Shown piece after piece: positions 1,454-50,965 of a stretch of DNA of 64,000 nucleotides. The notes under the pieces are model-generated. The model made no database searches. It worked only from the letters and a program-made list of their open reading frames with translations, and was not told where the DNA came from. The stretch lies in the IMG/VR virus record IMGVR_UViG_3300025872_000041, positions 50,559-114,558 of that record; one strand, 5' to 3'. Position 1 is the stretch's first letter; each line of letters starts with the position of its first letter. The position numbers and the translations under genes are program-made. This stretch comes from a virus (lineage: Duplodnaviria; Caudoviricetes).

Positions 1454-2662
1454 ATGTATTCACAAGAATTAAAAGATAAGGTAGCTAAAAGTAAAGAATG
1501 GAAGCTATCTAATATTGAGTGTGCAAGAAGAATTGGTATTACTTTAGATGAATATTTAAAGATTAAAAAGTCTCTAGGATTTAAATCTAAAAAATTAAAA
1601 TACAATTCAGAACATAATGTAGAAAGAATTAATTCGGAGTCTTATGATTTAGAAAAAGGCACAGGTAAGATAGAGAAATTAGTATCAGTTAATCCTAAAA
1701 CCCCTGAAGAGATTATAGAGATCTTGGGTATAGATACTACAGAGTGGAAGTTATCTCAATATTGGAATAAGGAGAGAAGTGATAAATGGTTAGTATCAGC
1801 TTTAGTAACTAAAGTAGTAAAGACTAAAGAAGATTATCTAAAAGACATCATAGAAAACTTTAAACCGGATTATAAACCAGTAGTAGTAAAGAAGCAAAAG
1901 AGACACCGATATGTAAGCTGTGTACTATCTATGCAAGATATGCATATTGGTAAGGATGGTAATGATGATATCATAGAACAGTACTTTGCTTCACTAGAAC
2001 AACTTACAGAGAGTGTATCTAATAATTACTTTATAGATGATCTAGTGTATGTTGTAGGTGGTGATATATTAAACATGGATACGTTTAATGGTACTACTAC
2101 ATCAGGTACTCCGGTAGAGAACTCTGATAAAGCCTACAAAGTATATGCTGAAGCTTTTGATGCCCTATACCGGGGCATTCGTTTTTTAAAGGAGAGGTGT
2201 GAGACATTACATATAATGTTTATACCCGGTAATCATGATAGACTATCATCTTATCATCTAGTACATGCTCTCTCTAAAGCTGTACAAGAGGATGGTATAG
2301 TATGGCATGCTGATTATGCAGAGAGAAAAGTACTTACGTTTAACAATAACTTCTTTGCATTTGAGCACGGAGATGTAAATACTAAGAACTCATTACTAGT
2401 TTATGCTACTGAATTTTCAGAGCCCTGGGGTAATACTAAATTTAGAACTCTATATACTGGACATTATCATAAGAAGAAAACTGTAGAGTATATTACAGAG
2501 GATGAAATAACTGGTTTCTCTATTAAGATTATTCCTAGTCTATCTAAAACAGACTACTGGCACTACCATAATAAGTTTATTGGTAGTAAGAGAGCTGCCC
2601 TTATTGAGGTTCATGACTATGACAATGGTAAGATTGGAGAGTTTGTTTATAACTGTATTTAA
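1454..2662 (+). CDS. calcineurin-like metallophosphoesterase with N-terminal HTH-like region
   Basis: Ordered motifs DMH, GGD, GNHD, HGD and GHYH. Confidence 0.85.
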   Translation: MYSQELKDKVAKSKEWKLSNIECARRIGITLDEYLKIKKSLGFKSKKLKYNSEHNVERINSESYDLEKGTGKIEKLVSVNPKTPEEIIEILGIDTTEWKLSQYWNKERSDKWLVSALVTKVVKTKEDYLKDIIENFKPDYKPVVVKKQKRHRYVSCVLSMQDMHIGKDGNDDIIEQYFASLEQLTESVSNNYFIDDLVYVVGGDILNMDTFNGTTTSGTPVENSDKAYKVYAEAFDALYRGIRFLKERCETLHIMFIPGNHDRLSSYHLVHALSKAVQEDGIVWHADYAERKVLTFNNNFFAFEHGDVNTKNSLLVYATEFSEPWGNTKFRTLYTGHYHKKKTVEYITEDEITGFSIKIIPSLSKTDYWHYHNKFIGSKRAALIEVHDYDNGKIGEFVYNCI

Positions 2663-2678
2663 TCTGGATTAAATTTTG

Positions 2679-2693
2679 TATCTTATTAATGTA
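2679..2693 (+). promoter_or_regulatory. putative phage late-promoter motif (TATCTTATTAATGTA)
   Basis: Same 15-nt motif, 8 nt upstream of the ATG that opens the tail gene cluster. Confidence 0.45.
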
Positions 2694-2701
2694 GTCAAGG
2701 T

Positions 2702-3283
2702 ATGAGAGGATATAAAGCACCTGATTTACATGCCTCAAGGCTGAGAATAAAACCTAAGAGAATCTTAACAAAAGATTTTTTAGCAGAGTTCAAGGAGAGG
2801 CATCCTGAGTTTTCTACATTAGATGACAAAACTATCAAGAAGATAGTGATGAAGTTTAATGAAAATATTTGGAAAGAGGTAATTGCGTATAGAGATGGAG
2901 TTGAGTTACCAGAAAGTCTGGGATACCTGTTCATAGGTACCTGTACATTTAACCGTGACACTAATGTAAATTATGGTCTATCAGTTAAATACGGTAAAGA
3001 AATAAAGAACAGGAATCTAGAGTCAGATTCTAAGTTAGCTAAGATTTTCTATACAAACTATCAGACCAAATATAAGTTTGCAAACCGTGAGTTATGGGGT
3101 TTTCAAGCAGTTAGACAATTCAAGAGATCTGTAGCTAAAGAGTATCCTGTGTCTTGGCAAAAATATATTGTTGTAGATTCATATAAGAAAGTGTCAGAGA
3201 TGTTTTCAAAAGCTCTTAGAAAGCAAAGAGTTAAGAAAGAAGATAAGGATATACTTAGCTCATATGATGAATTTGAATTTTAA
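2702..3283 (+). CDS. IHF/HU-like DNA-binding protein (crAss-like)
   Basis: Basic protein with helix-helix then 'DGVELPESLGYLFI' (HU-like 'V.l.gfG.F' turn). Its position just before the tail ring genes matches crAss-like phages. Confidence 0.6.
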   Translation: MRGYKAPDLHASRLRIKPKRILTKDFLAEFKERHPEFSTLDDKTIKKIVMKFNENIWKEVIAYRDGVELPESLGYLFIGTCTFNRDTNVNYGLSVKYGKEIKNRNLESDSKLAKIFYTNYQTKYKFANRELWGFQAVRQFKRSVAKEYPVSWQKYIVVDSYKKVSEMFSKALRKQRVKKEDKDILSSYDEFEF

Positions 3284-43601: not shown

Positions 43602-44189
43602 ATGAGCTATACTAGAGAACAAATTGAAGCTGCTGTAAAAGCAAAAGGTTATAAGTACTTCGAGAATGGAGACTTTAACGTAAACATTATTGGTGTCCGT
43701 AATTCCTCTACTGGTAACAAAGTAACCAATGTATTTGATGATCATTTAACTCTTTCTTATAAAGAGAATGGTGAGTGGAAATTTAAAATTTGGCCTGCTA
43801 CCACTGATCCTGGAACCAAGGGTGTTAAAGAATTTCACAACGCTGCTGGAGTTGCACGTTTAGTGCCTGGTCAATATTCAGGTTCACACCATGTAGGTTT
43901 GCACCAAGGTAAATATGAGGCCCTTAAGCAGAAGGCAAATGTAAAAGTTTACCGTGATGCTAACAAAGACATGACTTATGATGAATCTAAGATACAAGAA
44001 GGGATCTTCGGTATTAACATTCACAAAGCTGGTGCAGATTCTACTTACGTGGAAAACTGGTCTGAGGGTTGCCAAGTGTTCAAGAAGTCTGCGGACTTTG
44101 ATGCATTTATGGCTATCTGTAAGAAAGCTGCTACACTGGGTGGTAACTCTTTTACCTATACTCTTATCGAGTCTAAAGATATTAAATAA
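43602..44189 (+). CDS. putative endolysin (L,D-transpeptidase/YkuD-like fold)
   Basis: 'NIIGVR...FDD...TTDPG...GINIH...WSEGCQV', giving an H...S-x-G-C catalytic pattern; follows the holin. Confidence 0.65.
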   Translation: MSYTREQIEAAVKAKGYKYFENGDFNVNIIGVRNSSTGNKVTNVFDDHLTLSYKENGEWKFKIWPATTDPGTKGVKEFHNAAGVARLVPGQYSGSHHVGLHQGKYEALKQKANVKVYRDANKDMTYDESKIQEGIFGINIHKAGADSTYVENWSEGCQVFKKSADFDAFMAICKKAATLGGNSFTYTLIESKDIK

Positions 44190-44192
44190 TCT

Positions 44193-44642
44193 ATGAAGGG
44201 GTTAATTATTAACCTCTTTTTATTCTTAGCCGTCCCTTGTTTTGCTCAAATCAAAATTGACAAAGCTGGGGACGGTTGGGATTTAAAAGTTGATTCAGCA
44301 ATTCAACTAATAAAGAAGGTAGACATAGATAAGTATAAGATGCTTGATACAAATTGTACTCAGGTATCTTTTATGATAAGTCCCTATTCTTCTTGCCAAC
44401 TAGAGAATGGTAAAGGTCATATCTACATAGCTGTAGATGATATTAAACTAAACTCTATAAATAATATTGCTGTAGTTCTAGTACATGAAAGCCTACATCT
44501 TTATATAGCAAAAAAAGGTATAGAGATGATTCCTGAAAAGGAGGAGACATTTTGTTACATGTATGAATTGAGCTTTATAAAAAACTTAGAAAATCCAGAG
44601 CCTTGGCTCACAGAACACGCTATTAACAACATAAAAAAATGA
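44193..44642 (+). CDS. secreted zincin-like metallopeptidase
   Basis: Signal peptide ending AVPCFA|Q; HESLH motif with downstream 'EE..CY.YE'. Confidence 0.65.
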   Translation: MKGLIINLFLFLAVPCFAQIKIDKAGDGWDLKVDSAIQLIKKVDIDKYKMLDTNCTQVSFMISPYSSCQLENGKGHIYIAVDDIKLNSINNIAVVLVHESLHLYIAKKGIEMIPEKEETFCYMYELSFIKNLENPEPWLTEHAINNIKK

Positions 44643-46531
44643 AAAAATTTATCTCTTCACTTGTAACTACTTTGTTTGCAACCGTAATGTTTGCGCAAAG
44701 TTCTAGCACATCTCCAGGTACAGGCCACTGGGTTGTGATTGATTCTGGCTACCAAGTTGCTACTACTACTGTAGGACAGACAGTAGCACCTTTACATTTT
44801 TACAATACCTCTACTTCTGAGAAGATCACCGGTATGCAGTTCCGTGTATTCTACGATAACACTGCATTTACTGCTGTAGTTCCTTCTTTAAAGATCTCTA
44901 GTACAGATCAGTATCTTCAGTACGTAGATAGTAATGCACAAGGATTCTTGACTGTAACTTTAGCTTACACTGGATCTAATGCTACTTTTAACTACTCTAA
45001 TGGAGCTACATTTGATTTAACCTTCACACACGCAGGAAGTGCAGTATGGAACAACTTAGATTCTATTAAGACTTTGAAAGTTGCGGGTGTTAAATCATTT
45101 GCAAACAAAGCTGCTACTAACTGGGGTAACGATACTACATTAGTAGTTTACTCTTACGGTGGTCGCTTCAACCAAAAAGTATTACGCTTTGCTGCTAAGT
45201 TTAAGAACGTAACAGGTTCTGATGCTAAGAACTTGTGGGTGTCTTTAGAAAAGAAATCTCCTAGCGGATCTTGGACTCAAGTAGAAGCTAAAGCAACTAA
45301 CTCTACTGGTGTTGTAGTATTCCGTAAATTCTTAGATACTACTTACTGGGATGTACGTATGGTAGTCAAAGGAGATACAATGACTCCTGGTAACGTATTC
45401 TCTACTGCAGATGCACAGAAGATTAACCAATCTATCTTAGCACAATACACTCCTTCAGGATTTGATTACTACACAATGGATGTAAACAACACTGATGGAT
45501 CTATTACTATTGCTGATGTATACTCTGTATACGGACGTTTAGCAGGTAGATTCTCTGCTTGGCCTAATGCTAAGAAAGATGTAATGTTCTTTACTGTTGC
45601 TGAATACAATGCTATCAATGGAGCTGCTTCTAACTTGACTGGTACCTACGCTACTGTAAACAACTTCAACTACTCTATTGATGGTAAAGATTCTATCACT
45701 TACTACGTAGCTGTTAAAGGAGATGCCAACTCTACCGGCTTTAAGATGGCTCGTTTGACTCCTATCAAGATTACAAACCCTGCTAATGCTAAGCGTTATA
45801 TTATTGATGAGACTGTAGCTTATGACTTCCCTGCAGAAACTATTGAAATCAATATGCCTAAAGTAACTGTAGATGAAGGTAACTTAGTTAACGTTCCTGT
45901 TAAAGTTCTTACAGATGGTAAGCAGTTAGGAGCTCTTCAGTTAGACTTGCGTTATGACACTGCTTACTTAGAGTTTAAGAAAGTAGAAAACACCGAAAAG
46001 ATGATGAAGTGGACTTCTTACTTAAACCCTTCTAATGGTACAGTATCTTGGGGAGCAGCTGACTTAACTAACGAGAACTTCTTAAATGATGGAGAGCAAG
46101 TATTCACTCTTCAGTTTATTGCTAAGAAACCACAAGACTCTTGGGCTACTGCAGCTTTATGGACTGGTGCTAAATACGTAGGAGATGTAAAGTCTAAAGA
46201 CATGAACATTACCCCGGCTATGGGTATTGTAGAGGTACGTAGAATTAACAAAGGAGTTGTCTCTTTAAATGACCTTAACTCTGTAATTGTATTCCCTAAT
46301 CCTACAGATGGTGCAGTACAGATCCAATTCCAGATTAAACAAGATGCTGACGTAGATGTAGCTATCTCTGATGAGGTAGGAAGACGTATACAGACCATTC
46401 TAAACGAGAAGATGCCTGCAGGTAAATACAAGTATACTGCTAACTTAGATCGTCTTTCTGATGGTGTATATGTACTTACTGTAGTTACAGAGCACGAAGT
46501 ATTACATTCTAAAATTATTGTAAACAAATGA
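44639..46531 (+). CDS. T9SS C-terminal sorting domain protein with cohesin-like and dockerin/EF-hand-like domains
   Basis: Signal peptide VMFA|Q. Cohesin-like 'ITGMQFRVFYD' and 'VPVKV...LGALQLDLRYD'; Ca-loop 'DVNNTDGSITIADV'; type A CTD 'VFPNPT...G...LSDGVYVLTV...KIIVNK'. Confidence 0.8.
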   Translation: MKKFISSLVTTLFATVMFAQSSSTSPGTGHWVVIDSGYQVATTTVGQTVAPLHFYNTSTSEKITGMQFRVFYDNTAFTAVVPSLKISSTDQYLQYVDSNAQGFLTVTLAYTGSNATFNYSNGATFDLTFTHAGSAVWNNLDSIKTLKVAGVKSFANKAATNWGNDTTLVVYSYGGRFNQKVLRFAAKFKNVTGSDAKNLWVSLEKKSPSGSWTQVEAKATNSTGVVVFRKFLDTTYWDVRMVVKGDTMTPGNVFSTADAQKINQSILAQYTPSGFDYYTMDVNNTDGSITIADVYSVYGRLAGRFSAWPNAKKDVMFFTVAEYNAINGAASNLTGTYATVNNFNYSIDGKDSITYYVAVKGDANSTGFKMARLTPIKITNPANAKRYIIDETVAYDFPAETIEINMPKVTVDEGNLVNVPVKVLTDGKQLGALQLDLRYDTAYLEFKKVENTEKMMKWTSYLNPSNGTVSWGAADLTNENFLNDGEQVFTLQFIAKKPQDSWATAALWTGAKYVGDVKSKDMNITPAMGIVEVRRINKGVVSLNDLNSVIVFPNPTDGAVQIQFQIKQDADVDVAISDEVGRRIQTILNEKMPAGKYKYTANLDRLSDGVYVLTVVTEHEVLHSKIIVNK

Positions 46532-46878
46532 ACATTAAAAAAGCACTTGGTCTTAACCAAGCAGAACCCGTAGTAGTAGATCCTAAGAACAGGTTCTATT
46601 ATATGCTACAACAAATGCAAGCAAACCGTTGGAAGATTACAGCTATTGTATTAGGTTTGTTCTTCTTTATTATCCTTGGTATTAACTCTGCAGTATTCTT
46701 TGGAATAGAAATCCAAGAGAACTGGAAAGAGATGTTACTAATTCTTTTTGGTGCATTTGTAGGTAACTTAAATAAAGTAGTAGACTACTGGTTTAACTCA
46801 GAAGACCGTGACAAGATGCTAATACAAAAGGTGGATGAAGAAGACGGAGAATCATTATCTAACCCAAATAACTCTTAA
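46528..46878 (+). CDS. small two-TM membrane protein
   Basis: Hydrophobic segments 'ITAIVLGLFFFIILGINSAVFF' and 'MLLILFGAFVGNL', with an acidic tail. Confidence 0.65.
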   Translation: MNIKKALGLNQAEPVVVDPKNRFYYMLQQMQANRWKITAIVLGLFFFIILGINSAVFFGIEIQENWKEMLLILFGAFVGNLNKVVDYWFNSEDRDKMLIQKVDEEDGESLSNPNNS

Positions 46879-46882
46879 TATT

Positions 46883-47215
46883 ATGTCTGAAGAACAACAA
46901 GAAGAAAGCGTAATGTCTGCTACTAAGAAAGCAGTCATTGGCGCAGTCACCACTGCAGTAACTGCAGGAGGTGCATGGTTTATGACCCACTTAGGTGGCG
47001 GAGAAGAGCCTAAAGAAGAAGCTAAAACAGAACAAGCTGCATCCGGTGCACCTGTTGTGATTAACTTACAGAACAACAACACTAACCAACAGAAGCAATC
47101 TAATGGTGGAGGTACTAACACAGTTATTAAAGAACGTGTTATTGAGAAACAAGCTCCTGCACCAGCCGCTGCTCCTGCTGCTAAGCCTGAACCTAAAGAA
47201 GAAGATCCATGGTAA
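46883..47215 (+). CDS. membrane-anchored low-complexity protein
   Basis: Likely start is the ATG at 46883 (MSEEQQ). One Gly/Ala/Thr-rich TM-like segment, then Asn/Gln- and Pro/Ala-rich regions. Confidence 0.6.
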   Translation: MSEEQQEESVMSATKKAVIGAVTTAVTAGGAWFMTHLGGGEEPKEEAKTEQAASGAPVVINLQNNNTNQQKQSNGGGTNTVIKERVIEKQAPAPAAAPAAKPEPKEEDPW

Positions 47216-47907
47216 AAAAGTGGTTCAATAAGTTTATGACTTTAGTAGTCATGACTCTTGCTGGTTGTGGTTCAATGAAAACAACAACTGATGGAGAAGC
47301 TGTAGAGAGCAAAGATATCTCTACAGTTTCTTCTTATACTGATTCTATTAAGAAAACAGTGCAAGTAGTTAGTGTAGATATGACAAAAGTTCTTTCTTTG
47401 TATCCTGCTTTACAGGAAAAGAATGTAGGACTTGGTTTTGCTGAGTCAGTACTAGATTATTTGGATGAAACAAACAGATTTATATTTACAGAAGAAAAGT
47501 CAGAGATCAAAGAAAGAATGGTTACTCAATTCAAAGCCTCTAAAAAAGGTGTATTTGATGAGCCAATTGATGGAAAAGGTAAGATTAAACCTGCTCACTA
47601 CTTTGTTTATGTTACTGTGGCTGATTTTGCTGTTGATGAAGACGAGCAAGTTGATGGTCTTAAGTCAAAAGTTGTGGTTACTACCTTCATTCGTTTACAG
47701 GTCCGCTTTGTGGATGCTAAAACAGGTCAGATCTATATTGGTTCTGGTGAAGGTGAATCAACAAAGACTGGTGAATCATTCTTGAAGTCTCTGGATGATA
47801 TGAAATTCTCTCAAAGTACTGTAGGTAAAGCTACCCGTAAGTCTCTTGAAACTGCTTGCACTAATGTGATCCAAAATCTCATTAAGTCAGGTGTATTTAA
47901 AAACTAA
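47209..47907 (+). CDS. CsgG/HfaB-family lipoprotein
   Basis: Lipobox LAGC and CsgG-type pattern 'L.ETNRF...E' and 'LQVRFVDAKTGQI..GSGEG'. Confidence 0.75.
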   Translation: MVKKWFNKFMTLVVMTLAGCGSMKTTTDGEAVESKDISTVSSYTDSIKKTVQVVSVDMTKVLSLYPALQEKNVGLGFAESVLDYLDETNRFIFTEEKSEIKERMVTQFKASKKGVFDEPIDGKGKIKPAHYFVYVTVADFAVDEDEQVDGLKSKVVVTTFIRLQVRFVDAKTGQIYIGSGEGESTKTGESFLKSLDDMKFSQSTVGKATRKSLETACTNVIQNLIKSGVFKN

Positions 47908-49354
47908 AATACTAATTCTATTTATGATAATAGCTCTGTCCGTAAATGGGCAGAGCTTTATGTATTCCTACACAGATCCTTGTACACAGGAGTTAAAATT
48001 TATTAATGCCGATATGTCTAGTCCTATAGTAATTGCTTACTATGGACAGGTTAAAACATTCTCTTATACAGAATTACAAGATGGAACATTTGACAATTGG
48101 ATAAATAGTGTATATTTGAAGTATAAAAATACATCACCCTGTCAAGGAGTTGGAGTAACTACTACTACAACTACCACAACAAATACGACTCTAAACATTG
48201 TAAGCAATGTAATGAACTTAGGGGCTATTTCAAATGTTGGTAGTGTAAATATAGATGTAGGATCTAGCACCTCTTCAGGAACTAACGTAGGGACAACCAA
48301 TAAAACAAATAATAATGACAGTAGAACTAATTCTCGGAATCGTACTAGTAGTAGCTCTAGTAATTCTAATTCTTCTAGCAGCTCGTCAGGAGAGACTGGA
48401 AACGGAAGCAATGGAGGAAATCCACCAGAAAATCAAGGTGGGAATTCCGACAACACCAACCCCGGAAGTGGTAGTGGCAGCGGAGAAGGTAATGGAGGAA
48501 GCAGTGGCTCCGGCTCCAGTGGAAACTCCAGTGGTAGTGGAAGCAGTAGTGGAAACTCCCAAGGTGGAGGAAGTGGTGGTAGCGGAGGTAAAACCGAAGA
48601 AAAAACGCAAGTACAAGAAGAAAAACCCTCCGACCAACAAGTAGAAGAAACTAAGACTGAGCAACAAAAGACTCAGTCTAGTGGTACTGCAAAAGCAGCC
48701 AATAAAGCTAAAGCCGAAGTTGCTAAGCCCGCAATATTAGTAACTGGTGATTTAGTTGGTATTCAGACTAAGTCTGATGGAGCACAAGATGCAAGAGGTA
48801 CTGCCTCCTTTACAAGAGTAAAAGGAGATGGTACTTCTTCTCTTGGCTTTTCAGCCGATTACATGGTAAATGCTAAAATCGGTAATATCTCCTGTGTCCG
48901 TTCATGGATAGGAGCAAATAAAAAAGGCAACAAACACATTAGTGTTGTATCAGACGGTCTAAGTCTAATGCCTAAATCAATATCAAACACACTCTTGTTT
49001 GTAAGAGTGAACTCAGTTAAAAACTTTACAGCACTCTATGGAGCTGCAGGAACCTATGGTAAACTATTTGGAGAAGAGATGATTTCTACAATTGCTATAG
49101 GTGGATTTATGTACAAGGGTAAACTTACTAAGAGTATAGATGCTACAATTATTGCAGCTGGAATCTATTCTCCTTACTCTAAGTATTATACAGAATCTTT
49201 ATTTGAAGCTAAGCCTATTGTAATTCCTTTCTTTAACTTTACCTACAGGATGACCAAGACATTTGGTTTAGGTATTACAGGAGGAGGAACTTATGTAGCA
49301 GGACAAGATATCCTAAACTTTCAAGTATTAATGGGAGCAAAGTTATTGTTATGA
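47891..49354 (+). CDS. secreted protein with Thr/Ser/Gly linker and C-terminal beta-barrel-like domain
   Basis: Signal peptide SVNG|Q, a Cys pair in the N-domain, a long S/G/N linker, and C-terminal alternating hydrophobic strands ending 'FQVLMGAKLLL'. Confidence 0.65.
   Translation: MYLKTKILILFMIIALSVNGQSFMYSYTDPCTQELKFINADMSSPIVIAYYGQVKTFSYTELQDGTFDNWINSVYLKYKNTSPCQGVGVTTTTTTTTNTTLNIVSNVMNLGAISNVGSVNIDVGSSTSSGTNVGTTNKTNNNDSRTNSRNRTSSSSSNSNSSSSSSGETGNGSNGGNPPENQGGNSDNTNPGSGSGSGEGNGGSSGSGSSGNSSGSGSSSGNSQGGGSGGSGGKTEEKTQVQEEKPSDQQVEETKTEQQKTQSSGTAKAANKAKAEVAKPAILVTGDLVGIQTKSDGAQDARGTASFTRVKGDGTSSLGFSADYMVNAKIGNISCVRSWIGANKKGNKHISVVSDGLSLMPKSISNTLLFVRVNSVKNFTALYGAAGTYGKLFGEEMISTIAIGGFMYKGKLTKSIDATIIAAGIYSPYSKYYTESLFEAKPIVIPFFNFTYRMTKTFGLGITGGGTYVAGQDILNFQVLMGAKLLL
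48315..48644 (+). CDS. candidate overprinted single-TM protein nested in the linker of 47891..49354
   Basis: ATG in an A-rich context, N-terminal TM 'LILGIVLVVALVILILLAA', E/V/P-rich stalk, basic tail KPKKKRKYKKK. Confidence 0.45.
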   Translation: MTVELILGIVLVVALVILILLAARQERLETEAMEEIHQKIKVGIPTTPTPEVVVAAEKVMEEAVAPAPVETPVVVEAVVETPKVEEVVVAEVKPKKKRKYKKKNPPTNK

Positions 49355-50502
49355 GGTGGATCATTGTTTTATTCTTCTTTGCAAACTCTTTGCTTGGACA
49401 GTTTACCTACTCAGGTTATGTCTATAGTGCTAATGGAGGTGCTGCTATAAACGTTCCTGTAAAGCTTTATAAGAGGACTACAACTACATCAGGTAATAAC
49501 TCTACTTCTGTTAAAGTATATAGAACTCACTACGGTACAGGAAATACATCTCAGTATGCAACCTATCCCTCTACAAGATCAGAGATGGATAGATGTTTTA
49601 ATACAGGTTGGGCTGCAACTACCTTATGGTCCACTGTTACAATGTCTGGTAACTCTTCCTTAAACTTTGGAGCATACACAACATTAACATCAGCTGGTGC
49701 TTCTGTTCCTAGTAGTGGAGATTATTATGCTACTGAAGTTACTTTTACTTTTACTCCTGCAGAAACTGGTAGTTATTCTTTTGGTATGACTTCTGATGAT
49801 GGATCAGATTTGTGGTTAGTAAACACAGGAAGTATTATTGAATACTATGGAGGTAAAGGAGTAGGTACTTACAAATACGGTAGTGTGAGTTTAACCGCAG
49901 GTACTTCTTATACGTTTATTGCACGCATGCAAGAATACTCTGGAGGAGATGGATTATATCTTATCTGGAGAAGACCTTCGCAATCTGCACATTCTTATCA
50001 ATCTTCTGAAGTAGGGACAATAACTACTACAACCTCTTCTTGGACTTTAGATGCTACAGCGTATACTAACTCTTCAGGATACTATGCTTTCTCTAGAACC
50101 ACTACTGCAAGTACGCAATGGTATATACAAGTAGATGTACCTACAAGAATTCAGGCTTACACTAGCACAGATATTCAAACAGTATCTAATATTATCTTAG
50201 GTAAGTCTACAGTCAATGGATTATCTTATCACAGATTTGATGTTAATGATGACGGAAGATTAAACATTGCAGACAAGTATTATGTAGCTGCTAGGAAGTC
50301 AGGAAGATTTACTAGATGGAGGTTAGCCTCTGATGTAAGAATATTTACAGCTACTGAGTACAATACAATCTCTTCTTCTACTGGTAATGTGCGTACTACA
50401 TATCCAGGAATAACTACCTTCTCAACTTCTACTTTAACTAGTGGAGGAACTTTAAATCTATATTTAATAGCTCCGGGATACTCTGGAGCAGTAACCTACT
50501 AA
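49351..50502 (+). CDS. secreted PA14-domain protein with dockerin/EF-hand-like C-terminal region
   Basis: Signal peptide SLLG|Q. PA14 signature 'FTPAETGSYSFGMTSDDGSDLW...QEYSGGDGL.L.W' and Ca-loop 'DVNDDGRLNIAD'. Confidence 0.75.
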   Translation: MRWIIVLFFFANSLLGQFTYSGYVYSANGGAAINVPVKLYKRTTTTSGNNSTSVKVYRTHYGTGNTSQYATYPSTRSEMDRCFNTGWAATTLWSTVTMSGNSSLNFGAYTTLTSAGASVPSSGDYYATEVTFTFTPAETGSYSFGMTSDDGSDLWLVNTGSIIEYYGGKGVGTYKYGSVSLTAGTSYTFIARMQEYSGGDGLYLIWRRPSQSAHSYQSSEVGTITTTTSSWTLDATAYTNSSGYYAFSRTTTASTQWYIQVDVPTRIQAYTSTDIQTVSNIILGKSTVNGLSYHRFDVNDDGRLNIADKYYVAARKSGRFTRWRLASDVRIFTATEYNTISSSTGNVRTTYPGITTFSTSTLTSGGTLNLYLIAPGYSGAVTY

Positions 50503-50503
50503 C

Positions 50504-50965
50504 ATGAAAAAACTATTTATACTTTCCGCTTTAGTCATTATGATGACTTCTCTGAGTGCTCAATGCTACAAAGTTGACACTGTTTCTAACACTGCTACTG
50601 TAAAGTATTTACTAGACAGGCCTGTAGAGTTTGGTGCTAAGGCAACACTAGAAGAGTTAATCTCTGATAAATATAGTCTATGTGATTCCGGAAGTATTGT
50701 ATCTGGAGAGATTGTATCAATTGCAATGCCGGAACAATTACTAAATATTGTAGGATTGCAGTTTTTAAAGAGACAATATATTATTACAACTAAAGTTGTT
50801 ATTGATGGCAAAACCTATATGGGTACTGCTACTAAAACAATGTTTGTGAATGCCATGTTTGTTGAGGTATCTGGTATACCACATAACAAAAAGGTTTTTT
50901 ACAAGACTATGCAGCAATCCTTAAAAAATGCTGTATATTATATATATGGCAGCAACAAAAACTAA
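50504..50965 (+). CDS. secreted protein, possibly a distant CsgG-fold paralogue
   Basis: Signal peptide SLSA|Q. 'VEFGAKATLEELI' and the C-terminal helix 'KTMQQSLKNAV' loosely parallel 'VGLGFAESVLDYL' and 'KATRKSLETAC' in 47209..47907. Confidence 0.5.
   Translation: MKKLFILSALVIMMTSLSAQCYKVDTVSNTATVKYLLDRPVEFGAKATLEELISDKYSLCDSGSIVSGEIVSIAMPEQLLNIVGLQFLKRQYIITTKVVIDGKTYMGTATKTMFVNAMFVEVSGIPHNKKVFYKTMQQSLKNAVYYIYGSNKN

Follow-up and report, generated by a model that had tools for sequence, protein, structure and literature searches.

The gene at 47891..49354 of the DNA analysed here contains a long low-complexity linker, which raises the question of whether this linker conceals a second gene. 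The 64-kb stretch studied, referred to as the window, is the final 64 kb of a 114,558-base viral record with a completeness rating of 96%. A first-pass annotation, made from the letters alone, had described a 109-amino-acid (aa) open reading frame (ORF) at 48315..48644, in the +1 frame of the linker. This ORF exists as described: its product has a hydrophobic start, then a middle rich in E, V, P and A, and a Lys/Arg-rich end. It is very probably a genuine protein-coding gene, presumably expressed, that is nested in the longer gene (hereafter the host gene). Four findings support the annotation's proposal that the linker is dual-coding and contains the gene of a small membrane protein: host-frame synonymous change is suppressed, variation follows the degeneracy of the shifted code, the ATG has a start-like context, and the product has a free-standing homologue.

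Relatives of the host gene were collected in scans that gave 59 viral loci and 80 metagenome loci (139 in all). Of these, tblastn placed 136, and the host ORF was complete in 111; the 96 unique sequences formed 18 clusters on a tree of the flanks. The window's own family (A+) comprises clusters 0, 6 and 8 with 34 sequences. The partial sequences L009, L013 and L037 were left out of the early clade comparisons, including the NG86 estimates of the ratio of non-synonymous to synonymous rates (dN/dS). Nucleotide alignments and trees were made for each clade, changes were counted by parsimony, and neutral rates were taken from 4-fold degenerate (4-fold) sites in the flanks.

Synonymous sites of the host frame evolve 3-4 times more slowly inside the nested ORF than in the flanks. 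In clade A, changes at host 4-fold sites numbered 22/1527 (0.014 per site-branch) in the overlap and 275/5087 (0.054) in the flanks (Fisher P 4e-13). Changes per site-branch at host codon positions 1, 2 and 3 were 0.013, 0.008 and 0.052 in the flanks, as compared with 0.033, 0.024 and 0.034 in the overlap. Lowered 4-fold counts were also found for the first +1 ORFs of clade B (11/288 versus 254/2117 in the flanks, P 5e-6) and clade D (2/132 versus 96/1209, P 0.004). No slowdown was seen in the control linkers B ov2 (58/474 versus 254/2117, P 0.88) and C2 (20/350 versus 101/1575, P 0.72), which are likewise +1-open and of low complexity. Synonymous-site constraint, named in the first-pass annotation as a check, is thus present inside the ORF and absent from control linkers, which supports dual coding. 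In a sliding window, the relative synonymous rate was 0.19-0.82 over alignment columns 450-870 (<0.66 except in three windows at 690-750) and returned to ~1.0 and above past column 900, with matching dips in clades B and D.

Changes were further classed as synonymous in the host frame and non-synonymous in the nested frame (SN), the reverse (NS), or non-synonymous in both (NN). Observed/expected values for SN, NS and NN were 1.25, 0.19 and 0.15 in the clade A flanks and 0.58, 0.61 and 0.40 in the clade A overlap; the corresponding values were 1.42, 0.69 and 0.55 in the B ov2 control, 1.26, 0.55 and 0.35 in C2, and 0.94, 0.45 and 0.32 in D ov2. The SN share in the clade A overlap, 89/178, falls short of the 0.68 that the control linkers would predict (P 3e-7). 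Along the nested ORF, observed/expected SN was 0.54 in the helix, 0.74 in the juxtamembrane motif, 0.68 in the spacer and 0.24 in the tail, as compared with 1.29 in the flanks. Phylogenetically independent sister pairs were also aligned pairwise (28/32 were used, the 4 outside the four families being left out). The twelve A+ pairs differed at 10/580 4-fold sites in the ORF and at 104/1851 in the flanks (P 4e-5). In A+, SN:NS fell from 221:36 in the flanks to 37:31 within the ORF, and the remainder of the linker gave 19:3. When changes to hydrophobic residues were set aside, host-non-synonymous change in the clade A overlap (0.85 at position 1 and 0.74 at position 2) equalled that of control B ov2 (0.87 and 0.87), whereas host-synonymous change was 0.59 as compared with 1.41. 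In the clade A overlap, synonymous changes of the host frame are thus rarer than acceptable non-synonymous ones. If alignment or recent exchange had led to a general undercount of changes, a lowering of the synonymous rate alone would not be expected.

By NG86, dN/dS of the host frame in clade A is 0.06-0.08 in the N- and C-domains and 0.53 in the overlap, that of the +1 frame is ~2 in the domains and 0.71 in the overlap, and that of the +2 frame is 1.07. The host frame is also functional across the overlap, one frame being kept through linkers of varying length; phase-inconsistent columns in the host alignments number 0 in 4/5 clades and 17 in clade B. Two other contrasts were rejected as evidence. 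A BLOSUM62 test of the conservativeness of host-synonymous changes was uninformative, as the non-coding +1 frame of the flanks shifts alike (-1.02 vs -1.36), and the contrast between nested-synonymous and nested-non-synonymous changes at host position 1 is present in the controls too and is not diagnostic.

The pattern of variation follows the codons of the shifted frame. The juxtamembrane motif of the nested product has 22 nucleotide variants in 41/96 unique homologues, which come from clusters 0, 2, 3, 7, 16 and 17, with one odd match in cluster 5. At its wobble sites, all 4 bases occur under ATN, only C/T under CAY, and only G/A under AAR. The host residues over the motif vary (PP/SS/AP/SP/TP; G/S) by position-1 changes that are silent in the nested frame, and the host third positions are frozen, the rare host codon GGG (2% usage) being present in all variants but the odd one. 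For comparison, invariant 4-fold columns in the flanks of the same 41 sequences number 0/60, and position 3 is invariant in 4/126 columns with an invariant degenerate amino acid. Over the nested tail, the rare host codons ACC (8% usage), ACG (2%) and CCC (7%) are invariant in 34/34 sequences; where the host residue changes between Glu and Gln, the nested Arg stays the same. The atypical C-ending codons that the first-pass annotation had noticed in the main frame are real: third-position C makes up 26% in the linker and 8% in 18 long ORFs of the window. TCC accounts for 6/34 linker Ser codons (2% in the long ORFs), GGA for 15/27 Gly codons (21%) and GAC for 3/3 Asp codons (12%).

The nested ATG lies in the A-rich context that the annotation had pointed out, with A not only at -3 but also at -6, -12 and -13. 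These adenines are conserved in A+ in 32/34 (A-3), 34/34 (A-6), 29/34 (A-12) and 34/34 (A-13) sequences. A position weight matrix (PWM) built from 35 putative window starts, a small set whose own members were scored in-sample, gave the nested ATG 4.29 bits, as compared with their median of 3.72. The same score was reached by 1.3% of 1096 internal out-of-frame ATGs, so that the nested ATG exceeds 98.7% of them. In the part of a study on Flavobacterium johnsoniae that bears on initiation (PMC6847099), A at -3, -6, -12 and -13 is described as promoting initiation, with no Shine-Dalgarno pairing used. The nested ATG is a putative start codon whose A-rich context is of the Bacteroidia type.

A search for homologous proteins with the nested product gave 21 matches, all on contigs of 506-2662 bp. 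Because the contigs are so short, these are mostly the same locus on fragments and not independent evidence; the names MCM and zona occludens toxin that the source attaches to such matches are spurious. A profile of 31 nested proteins, run against 1.84 billion representatives, gave 7 matches, all of them small proteins of the nested family. One matched cluster has a member on four contigs, the longest of 34 kb, and a scan of viral contigs with that member led to an 81.5-kb record (L142; completeness rating 69%); a viral-contig scan with another protein, P0022, gave no match. In L142 the homologue is free-standing: no long ORF overlaps it, and the frame equivalent to that of the host gene has 10 stops. 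No match to the host protein was found in this 69% complete record. The free-standing protein begins at the same Met as the nested product and is 41% identical to that of the window over 68 residues (BLASTP E 1e-10), in addition to an identical tail. Its dN/dS with five nested copies is 0.26-0.50, and a comparison of its last 19 codons with those of two nested copies gave 7 synonymous changes and 0 non-synonymous ones. The free-standing copy, regarded as the decisive evidence, shows that there is such a protein family and that selection acts on it where no overlap is present.

In L142 the free-standing gene ends a run at 1564-3217 that consists of two DUF2589 genes, an 86-codon gene for a protein with a transmembrane (TM) segment and a coiled coil, and the homologue itself. 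The ~390 bases downstream hold only two ORFs, of 40-46 codons. PHROGs and Pfam searches with the neighbours of the free-standing copy gave only DUF2589, twice, and no functional clue.

Several results weigh against a nested gene and are gathered in this and the following paragraph. A +1 stop needs a host codon with T at the second position, i.e. a hydrophobic residue; therefore, a hydrophilic linker is open in the +1 frame by construction. In a null model, the host protein was fixed and the linker codons were redrawn from the window's codon usage in 5000 trials. A +1 ATG ORF of at least 109 aa arose in 89% of the redraws and a hydrophobic window as strong as that observed in 13%, and a stop-free stretch of at least the observed 117 codons was present in 2000/2000 redraws made for that measure. 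The existence, length, linker fit and hydrophobic start of the nested ORF thus carry no weight, because the composition of the linker alone yields them. Three of the five arguments of the first-pass annotation, namely the extent of the ORF matching the linker, the open frame and the TM helix, are lost in this way, and its caveat that shifted Ser/Gly codons naturally give Val/Leu/Glu was right. Avoidance of stops was likewise discarded as evidence: clade A has 0 changes that create a +1 stop against 53 expected, yet the controls are equally depleted (observed/expected counts 2/39 in B ov2, 0/18 in D ov2 and 0/7.7 in C2). Such changes all put a hydrophobic residue into the host linker and are depleted in linkers alike, hence they are uninformative. 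The window itself contains no control linker, since only this stretch has at least 40 residues at >=95% hydrophilic.

The distribution of the ORF is uneven. In the initial set of 53 sequences, made up of the window plus 52 loci, the longest ATG ORF in the +1 frame has 46-118 aa and lies in the linker in 51/53, the exceptions being L025 and L059, and the longest one in the +2 frame has at most 22 aa. Among the 19 clade A sequences of the first sample, one stop column is common to 19/19 and the start column to 18/19 (in L011 the start lies two codons upstream). The N-terminal half of the nested protein occurs in three sequence types, all with the same basic tail. Absence of the ATG or stops in homologous linkers, to which the annotation had pointed as the test of its reading, gave a divided answer: all 34 sequences of the window's family keep the ATG directly before the TM-like helix, the helix and the stop, whereas distant clades stop after ~50 codons or give no TM-like product. 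Thus, the first +1 ORFs of clades B and D are shorter (33-65 codons), cluster 5 has no TM-like +1 product, and the distant homologue of phage immuto (30.5% identity) is +1-open over 88 codons with no TM-like stretch. The linker also moves as a cassette between backbones: L071 has a type II nested protein in a cluster 0 backbone, and L093 and L103 differ at 33/150 flank 4-fold sites and at 0/75 in the linker, which indicates cassette exchange. Recombination alone can lower divergence locally, and aligning a gappy low-complexity region may understate change. The nested-frame dN/dS in the overlap is only moderately below 1, and much of the middle of the predicted protein is therefore weakly constrained. 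Pfam and PHROGs scans of the nested product gave 0 families, its best score in a protein atlas (0.86) was to an unnamed viral cluster and gave no lead, and only one free-standing copy is known as DNA.

A rival reading, that the +1 ORF is an untranslated by-product of a hydrophilic Ser/Gly/Asn/Thr linker, is very unlikely. The shifted frame does become hydrophobic through T-ending codons and Lys-rich through Glu/Lys/Gln codons; ORFs of at least 100 aa with a Kyte-Doolittle window of at least 2.5 appear in 83% of the redraws; and open +1 stretches without synonymous constraint (the second one of clade B, C2 and D ov2) or without a TM segment (immuto) do occur. A by-product would leave unexplained, however, the 3-4-fold synonymous slowdown, the frozen rare codons, the degeneracy pattern of the shifted frame, the start-like context, and a free-standing homologue whose tail has changed by synonymous substitutions only. 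Past its helix, the nested product is 33% hydrophobic as compared with 66 +/- 7% expected, a value reached by 0/4467 redraws giving an ORF of at least 95 aa.

Translation of the +1 frame only as a frameshift fusion to the host N-terminal domain, and not from its own ATG, is rated still less probable. Both frames lie on one mRNA, and some viruses do reach nested frames by slippage. However, the open part of the +1 frame begins just 8 codons ahead of the ATG, a short interval in which no slippery heptamer was seen by eye, no formal scan being made. The conserved ATG with its adenines and the start of the free-standing homologue at the same Met also speak against a fusion. The least probable of the three is that the synonymous constraint comes from a nucleic-acid element, whether RNA structure, a regulatory site or an antisense ORF. 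Minus-strand ORFs at 48142..48411 (89 codons) and 48386..48667 (93 codons) cross the linker; from the coordinates, the antisense frame and the +1 frame have their wobble position in common, and 48386..48667 is codon-aligned with the host frame. The host Ser codon TCA is an antisense stop, though, and it is found in 13/22 motif variants (6/15 in the first set), in 11 of them with two in a row; therefore, the antisense ORF 48386..48667 is excluded and is a by-product. An RNA fold would not give constraint over ~400 nt with a three-base periodicity matching the +1 codon families, and the free-standing homologue conserves the +1 protein and not the nucleotides.

As a gene, then, the nested ORF is predicted to encode a single-pass inner-membrane protein with an outward N-terminus and a polybasic cytoplasmic tail. 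All family members (36/36) lack Lys and Arg ahead of the helix and have 2-5 of them among the 15 residues that follow it and 7-9 among the final 15; by the positive-inside rule, the distribution around the helix predicts an N-out/C-in orientation. The AlphaFold2 (AF2) model of the nested product (31 sequences) has a helix at residues 3-41, with a predicted local distance difference test (pLDDT) score of 85-93 in the first 20 residues, and a short helix at 51-57, the remainder being disordered. In the 31 aligned nested proteins, V59, E62 and A63 of an acidic segment are invariant and A55 and A56 nearly so, and ten consecutive residues of the polybasic tail are invariant in 31/31; the acidic segment was found in the free-standing homologue as well. 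The product has no Cys, no lipobox and no signal peptide. Its small size, one helix and charged basic end would be compatible with a holin, a family to which no PHROG or Pfam match points. Positions of these features are given in Table 1.

Table 1. Positions of the nested gene, its predicted elements, the host gene and the free-standing homologue (window coordinates unless a record is named).
Feature	Position	Strand	Description
Host gene	47891..49354	+	487 codons from GTG; ORF listing
Translation-initiation region, A-rich	48295..48314	+	14/20 bases A; A at -3, -6, -12, -13
Nested gene (probable)	48315..48644	+	ATG, 109 codons plus stop, offset +1 to host ORF, wholly inside it
Predicted transmembrane helix	48327..48383	+	nested residues 5-23; mean Kyte-Doolittle 3.49
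Conserved juxtamembrane motif	48411..48443	+	nested residues 33-43, M-E-E-I-H-Q-K-I-K-V-G
Conserved acidic segment	48477..48518	+	nested residues 55-68, around A-A-E-K-V-M-E-E-A
Invariant polybasic C-terminus	48588..48644	+	residues 92-109, core V-K-P-K-K-K-R-K-Y-K, plus stop
Free-standing homologue	L142:2930..3217	+	95 codons; last gene of plus-strand run

In the mechanism proposed, the internal ATG would serve ribosomes as an initiation site of its own, in the kind of A-rich context without Shine-Dalgarno sequence that ribosomes of Bacteroidia use. The 109-residue product would pass the inner membrane once, placing an N-terminus of ~4 residues outward. Its cytoplasmic part would consist of the juxtamembrane helix, the acidic segment, a Val/Glu/Ala/Pro-rich spacer of variable length and the polybasic end, which would most likely contact an anionic partner, either nucleic acid or the head groups of membrane lipids. 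As the linker need only be hydrophilic and flexible, the overlap is tolerated in the host frame. The leading guess for the role is a phage factor at the inner membrane of the bacterial host, acting with the surrounding envelope-protein module or on lysis timing.

Codon usage gives no order of age for the two frames because both fit poorly. The fit, in bits per codon, is -0.80 and -0.91 for the overlap frames, -0.19 and -0.31 for the real domains, and -0.68 and -0.80 for non-coding frames; the free-standing gene fits well, unlike both overlap frames. A speculative and rather unlikely possibility is that the nested gene is a mobile unit that passes between free-standing and nested states, either by overprinting in the linker followed by escape to an ordinary gene in another phage, or by capture of an independent gene, in which case at least the overlying part of the linker would be the by-product frame; in both cases its product could serve Bacteroidota phages as a factor for lysis or its timing. 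In the window's own record the family is represented by the nested copy only. As the family occurs both nested (in the 34 close relatives, with shorter forms in other clades) and free-standing, the direction of origin, whether overprinting and escape or capture, is testable.

The nested gene joins a known class of overprinted phage genes. Gene E of phiX174, which lies inside gene D, is also read with a +1 shift, and its product has ~90-110 residues and an N-terminal helix. In both cases a same-strand gene lies wholly inside another and its product is a small membrane protein. The predicted layout of the nested product is also like that of E, with a short outward N-terminus, one helix and a basic cytoplasmic end, which is offered as a lead only. 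Here, in contrast, the overlapped host region is disordered, being the linker of a secreted barrel, the phage is a double-stranded DNA phage of ~115 kb with an endolysin-like gene, the family also has a free-standing member, and the lysis function of E is not implied for the nested product. A passage on the D/E overlap in PMC8227390 describes T-rich host third positions that become nested second positions and give the hydrophobic transmembrane segment. The same source, where it treats the overlap of the hepadnavirus polymerase spacer with the surface gene, proposes that the spacer frame is the younger (PMC8227390). There, too, the DNA for a flexible part of one protein also encodes, in another frame, a membrane protein, in a virus of another realm and scale.

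The embedded spanin genes, to which the first-pass annotation had compared the ORF (Rz/Rz1), are alike in gene layout, with a gene within a gene in the +1 frame and products predicted for two envelope layers. The rest of the comparison did not stand: in Rz/Rz1 it is the embedded gene whose product is the outer-membrane lipoprotein, and the inner-membrane protein comes from the host gene, the reverse of the situation here, where the nested product lacks Cys and lipobox, its predicted N-out/C-in topology is opposite to that of an i-spanin, and the host is a 12-strand barrel. No spanin match turned up in the gene run around the nested ORF, in which no systematic spanin search was made. In the part of a spanin survey that treats embedded genes such as lambda Rz/Rz1, the inner gene is described as missed by gene callers, and no surveyed family there mixes embedded with separated members (PMC6139136). 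The nested-protein family, with both nested and free-standing members, differs in this from the surveyed spanin families. A literature search for such a nested linker gene found no report.

Phage coding capacity is under-counted because gene callers do not report genes nested inside others, and a disordered linker can hide a conserved protein. Synonymous rates compared with control linkers and variation that follows the degeneracy of the shifted code, and not ORF length, separate a real nested gene from a shifted-frame ORF. The nested gene would also add an uncharacterised predicted inner-membrane protein to the phage envelope-protein module.

Homologues of the host gene are common among viral contigs from fresh water (139 loci). 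From N- to C-terminus, its product comprises a signal peptide, a small domain, a long Ser/Gly/Asn linker that is disordered, a helix and a 12-strand β-barrel. The GTG start was chosen because an n-region and hydrophobic core then precede a Gly|Gln site, and clade B homologues have ATG at the aligned place. In the AF2 model (47 sequences; residues numbered from the ATG at 47924; mean pLDDT 54) residues 99-268 are disordered with pLDDT ~30, and helices at 237-262 are followed by 12 strands at 270-475 with pLDDT ~70. Foldseek matched this model to 12-strand outer-membrane barrels, including the NalP translocator (E 4.7e-6) and KdgM (TM-score 0.75 over the target), and further to NanC, FapF, BrkA, AIDA-I, EspP, Hbp and EstA. 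A Pfam scan of the protein gave 0 families at E up to 0.01, and thus no autotransporter β-domain family. At the moderate confidence of the model, the host protein looks autotransporter-like. It shares with those of type Va the signal peptide, a passenger-like N-terminal part, a long linker and a helix just before the 12-strand barrel, and differs by a tiny passenger (~100 residues) and the lack of a Pfam autotransporter family. The N-domain, of ~100 residues, has two conserved Cys. An unexplained local dip in the synonymous rate (0.31 of the mean) lies in this domain at about column 240 of the clade A alignment, outside the nested ORF.

Two further forms of the linker were noted. In clade B (e.g. 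L044, L045 and L057; columns 675-914) a second +1-open stretch follows right after the stop of the first ORF, with a TM-like segment, a basic end and an ATG or GTG start. This stretch, which is free of synonymous constraint, looks like an untranslated counterpart of the part that is probably coding in the window's family. The linkers of L112, L115 and L118 (cluster 10) have ~70 additional codons, and their +1 frame stays open over >200 codons with long hydrophobic runs.

The nested ORF lies ~4 kb downstream of an endolysin-like gene (43602..44189), in a run of envelope-protein genes that includes those for a T9SS cohesin protein, two small membrane proteins, a lipoprotein, the barrel protein and a PA14/dockerin-like protein. 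From 44193 to 50965, neighbouring genes are joined throughout by short overlaps or gaps of a few bases, and the GTG start of the host gene overlaps the 3' end of the upstream lipoprotein gene (47209..47907) by 17 bases (47891..47907).

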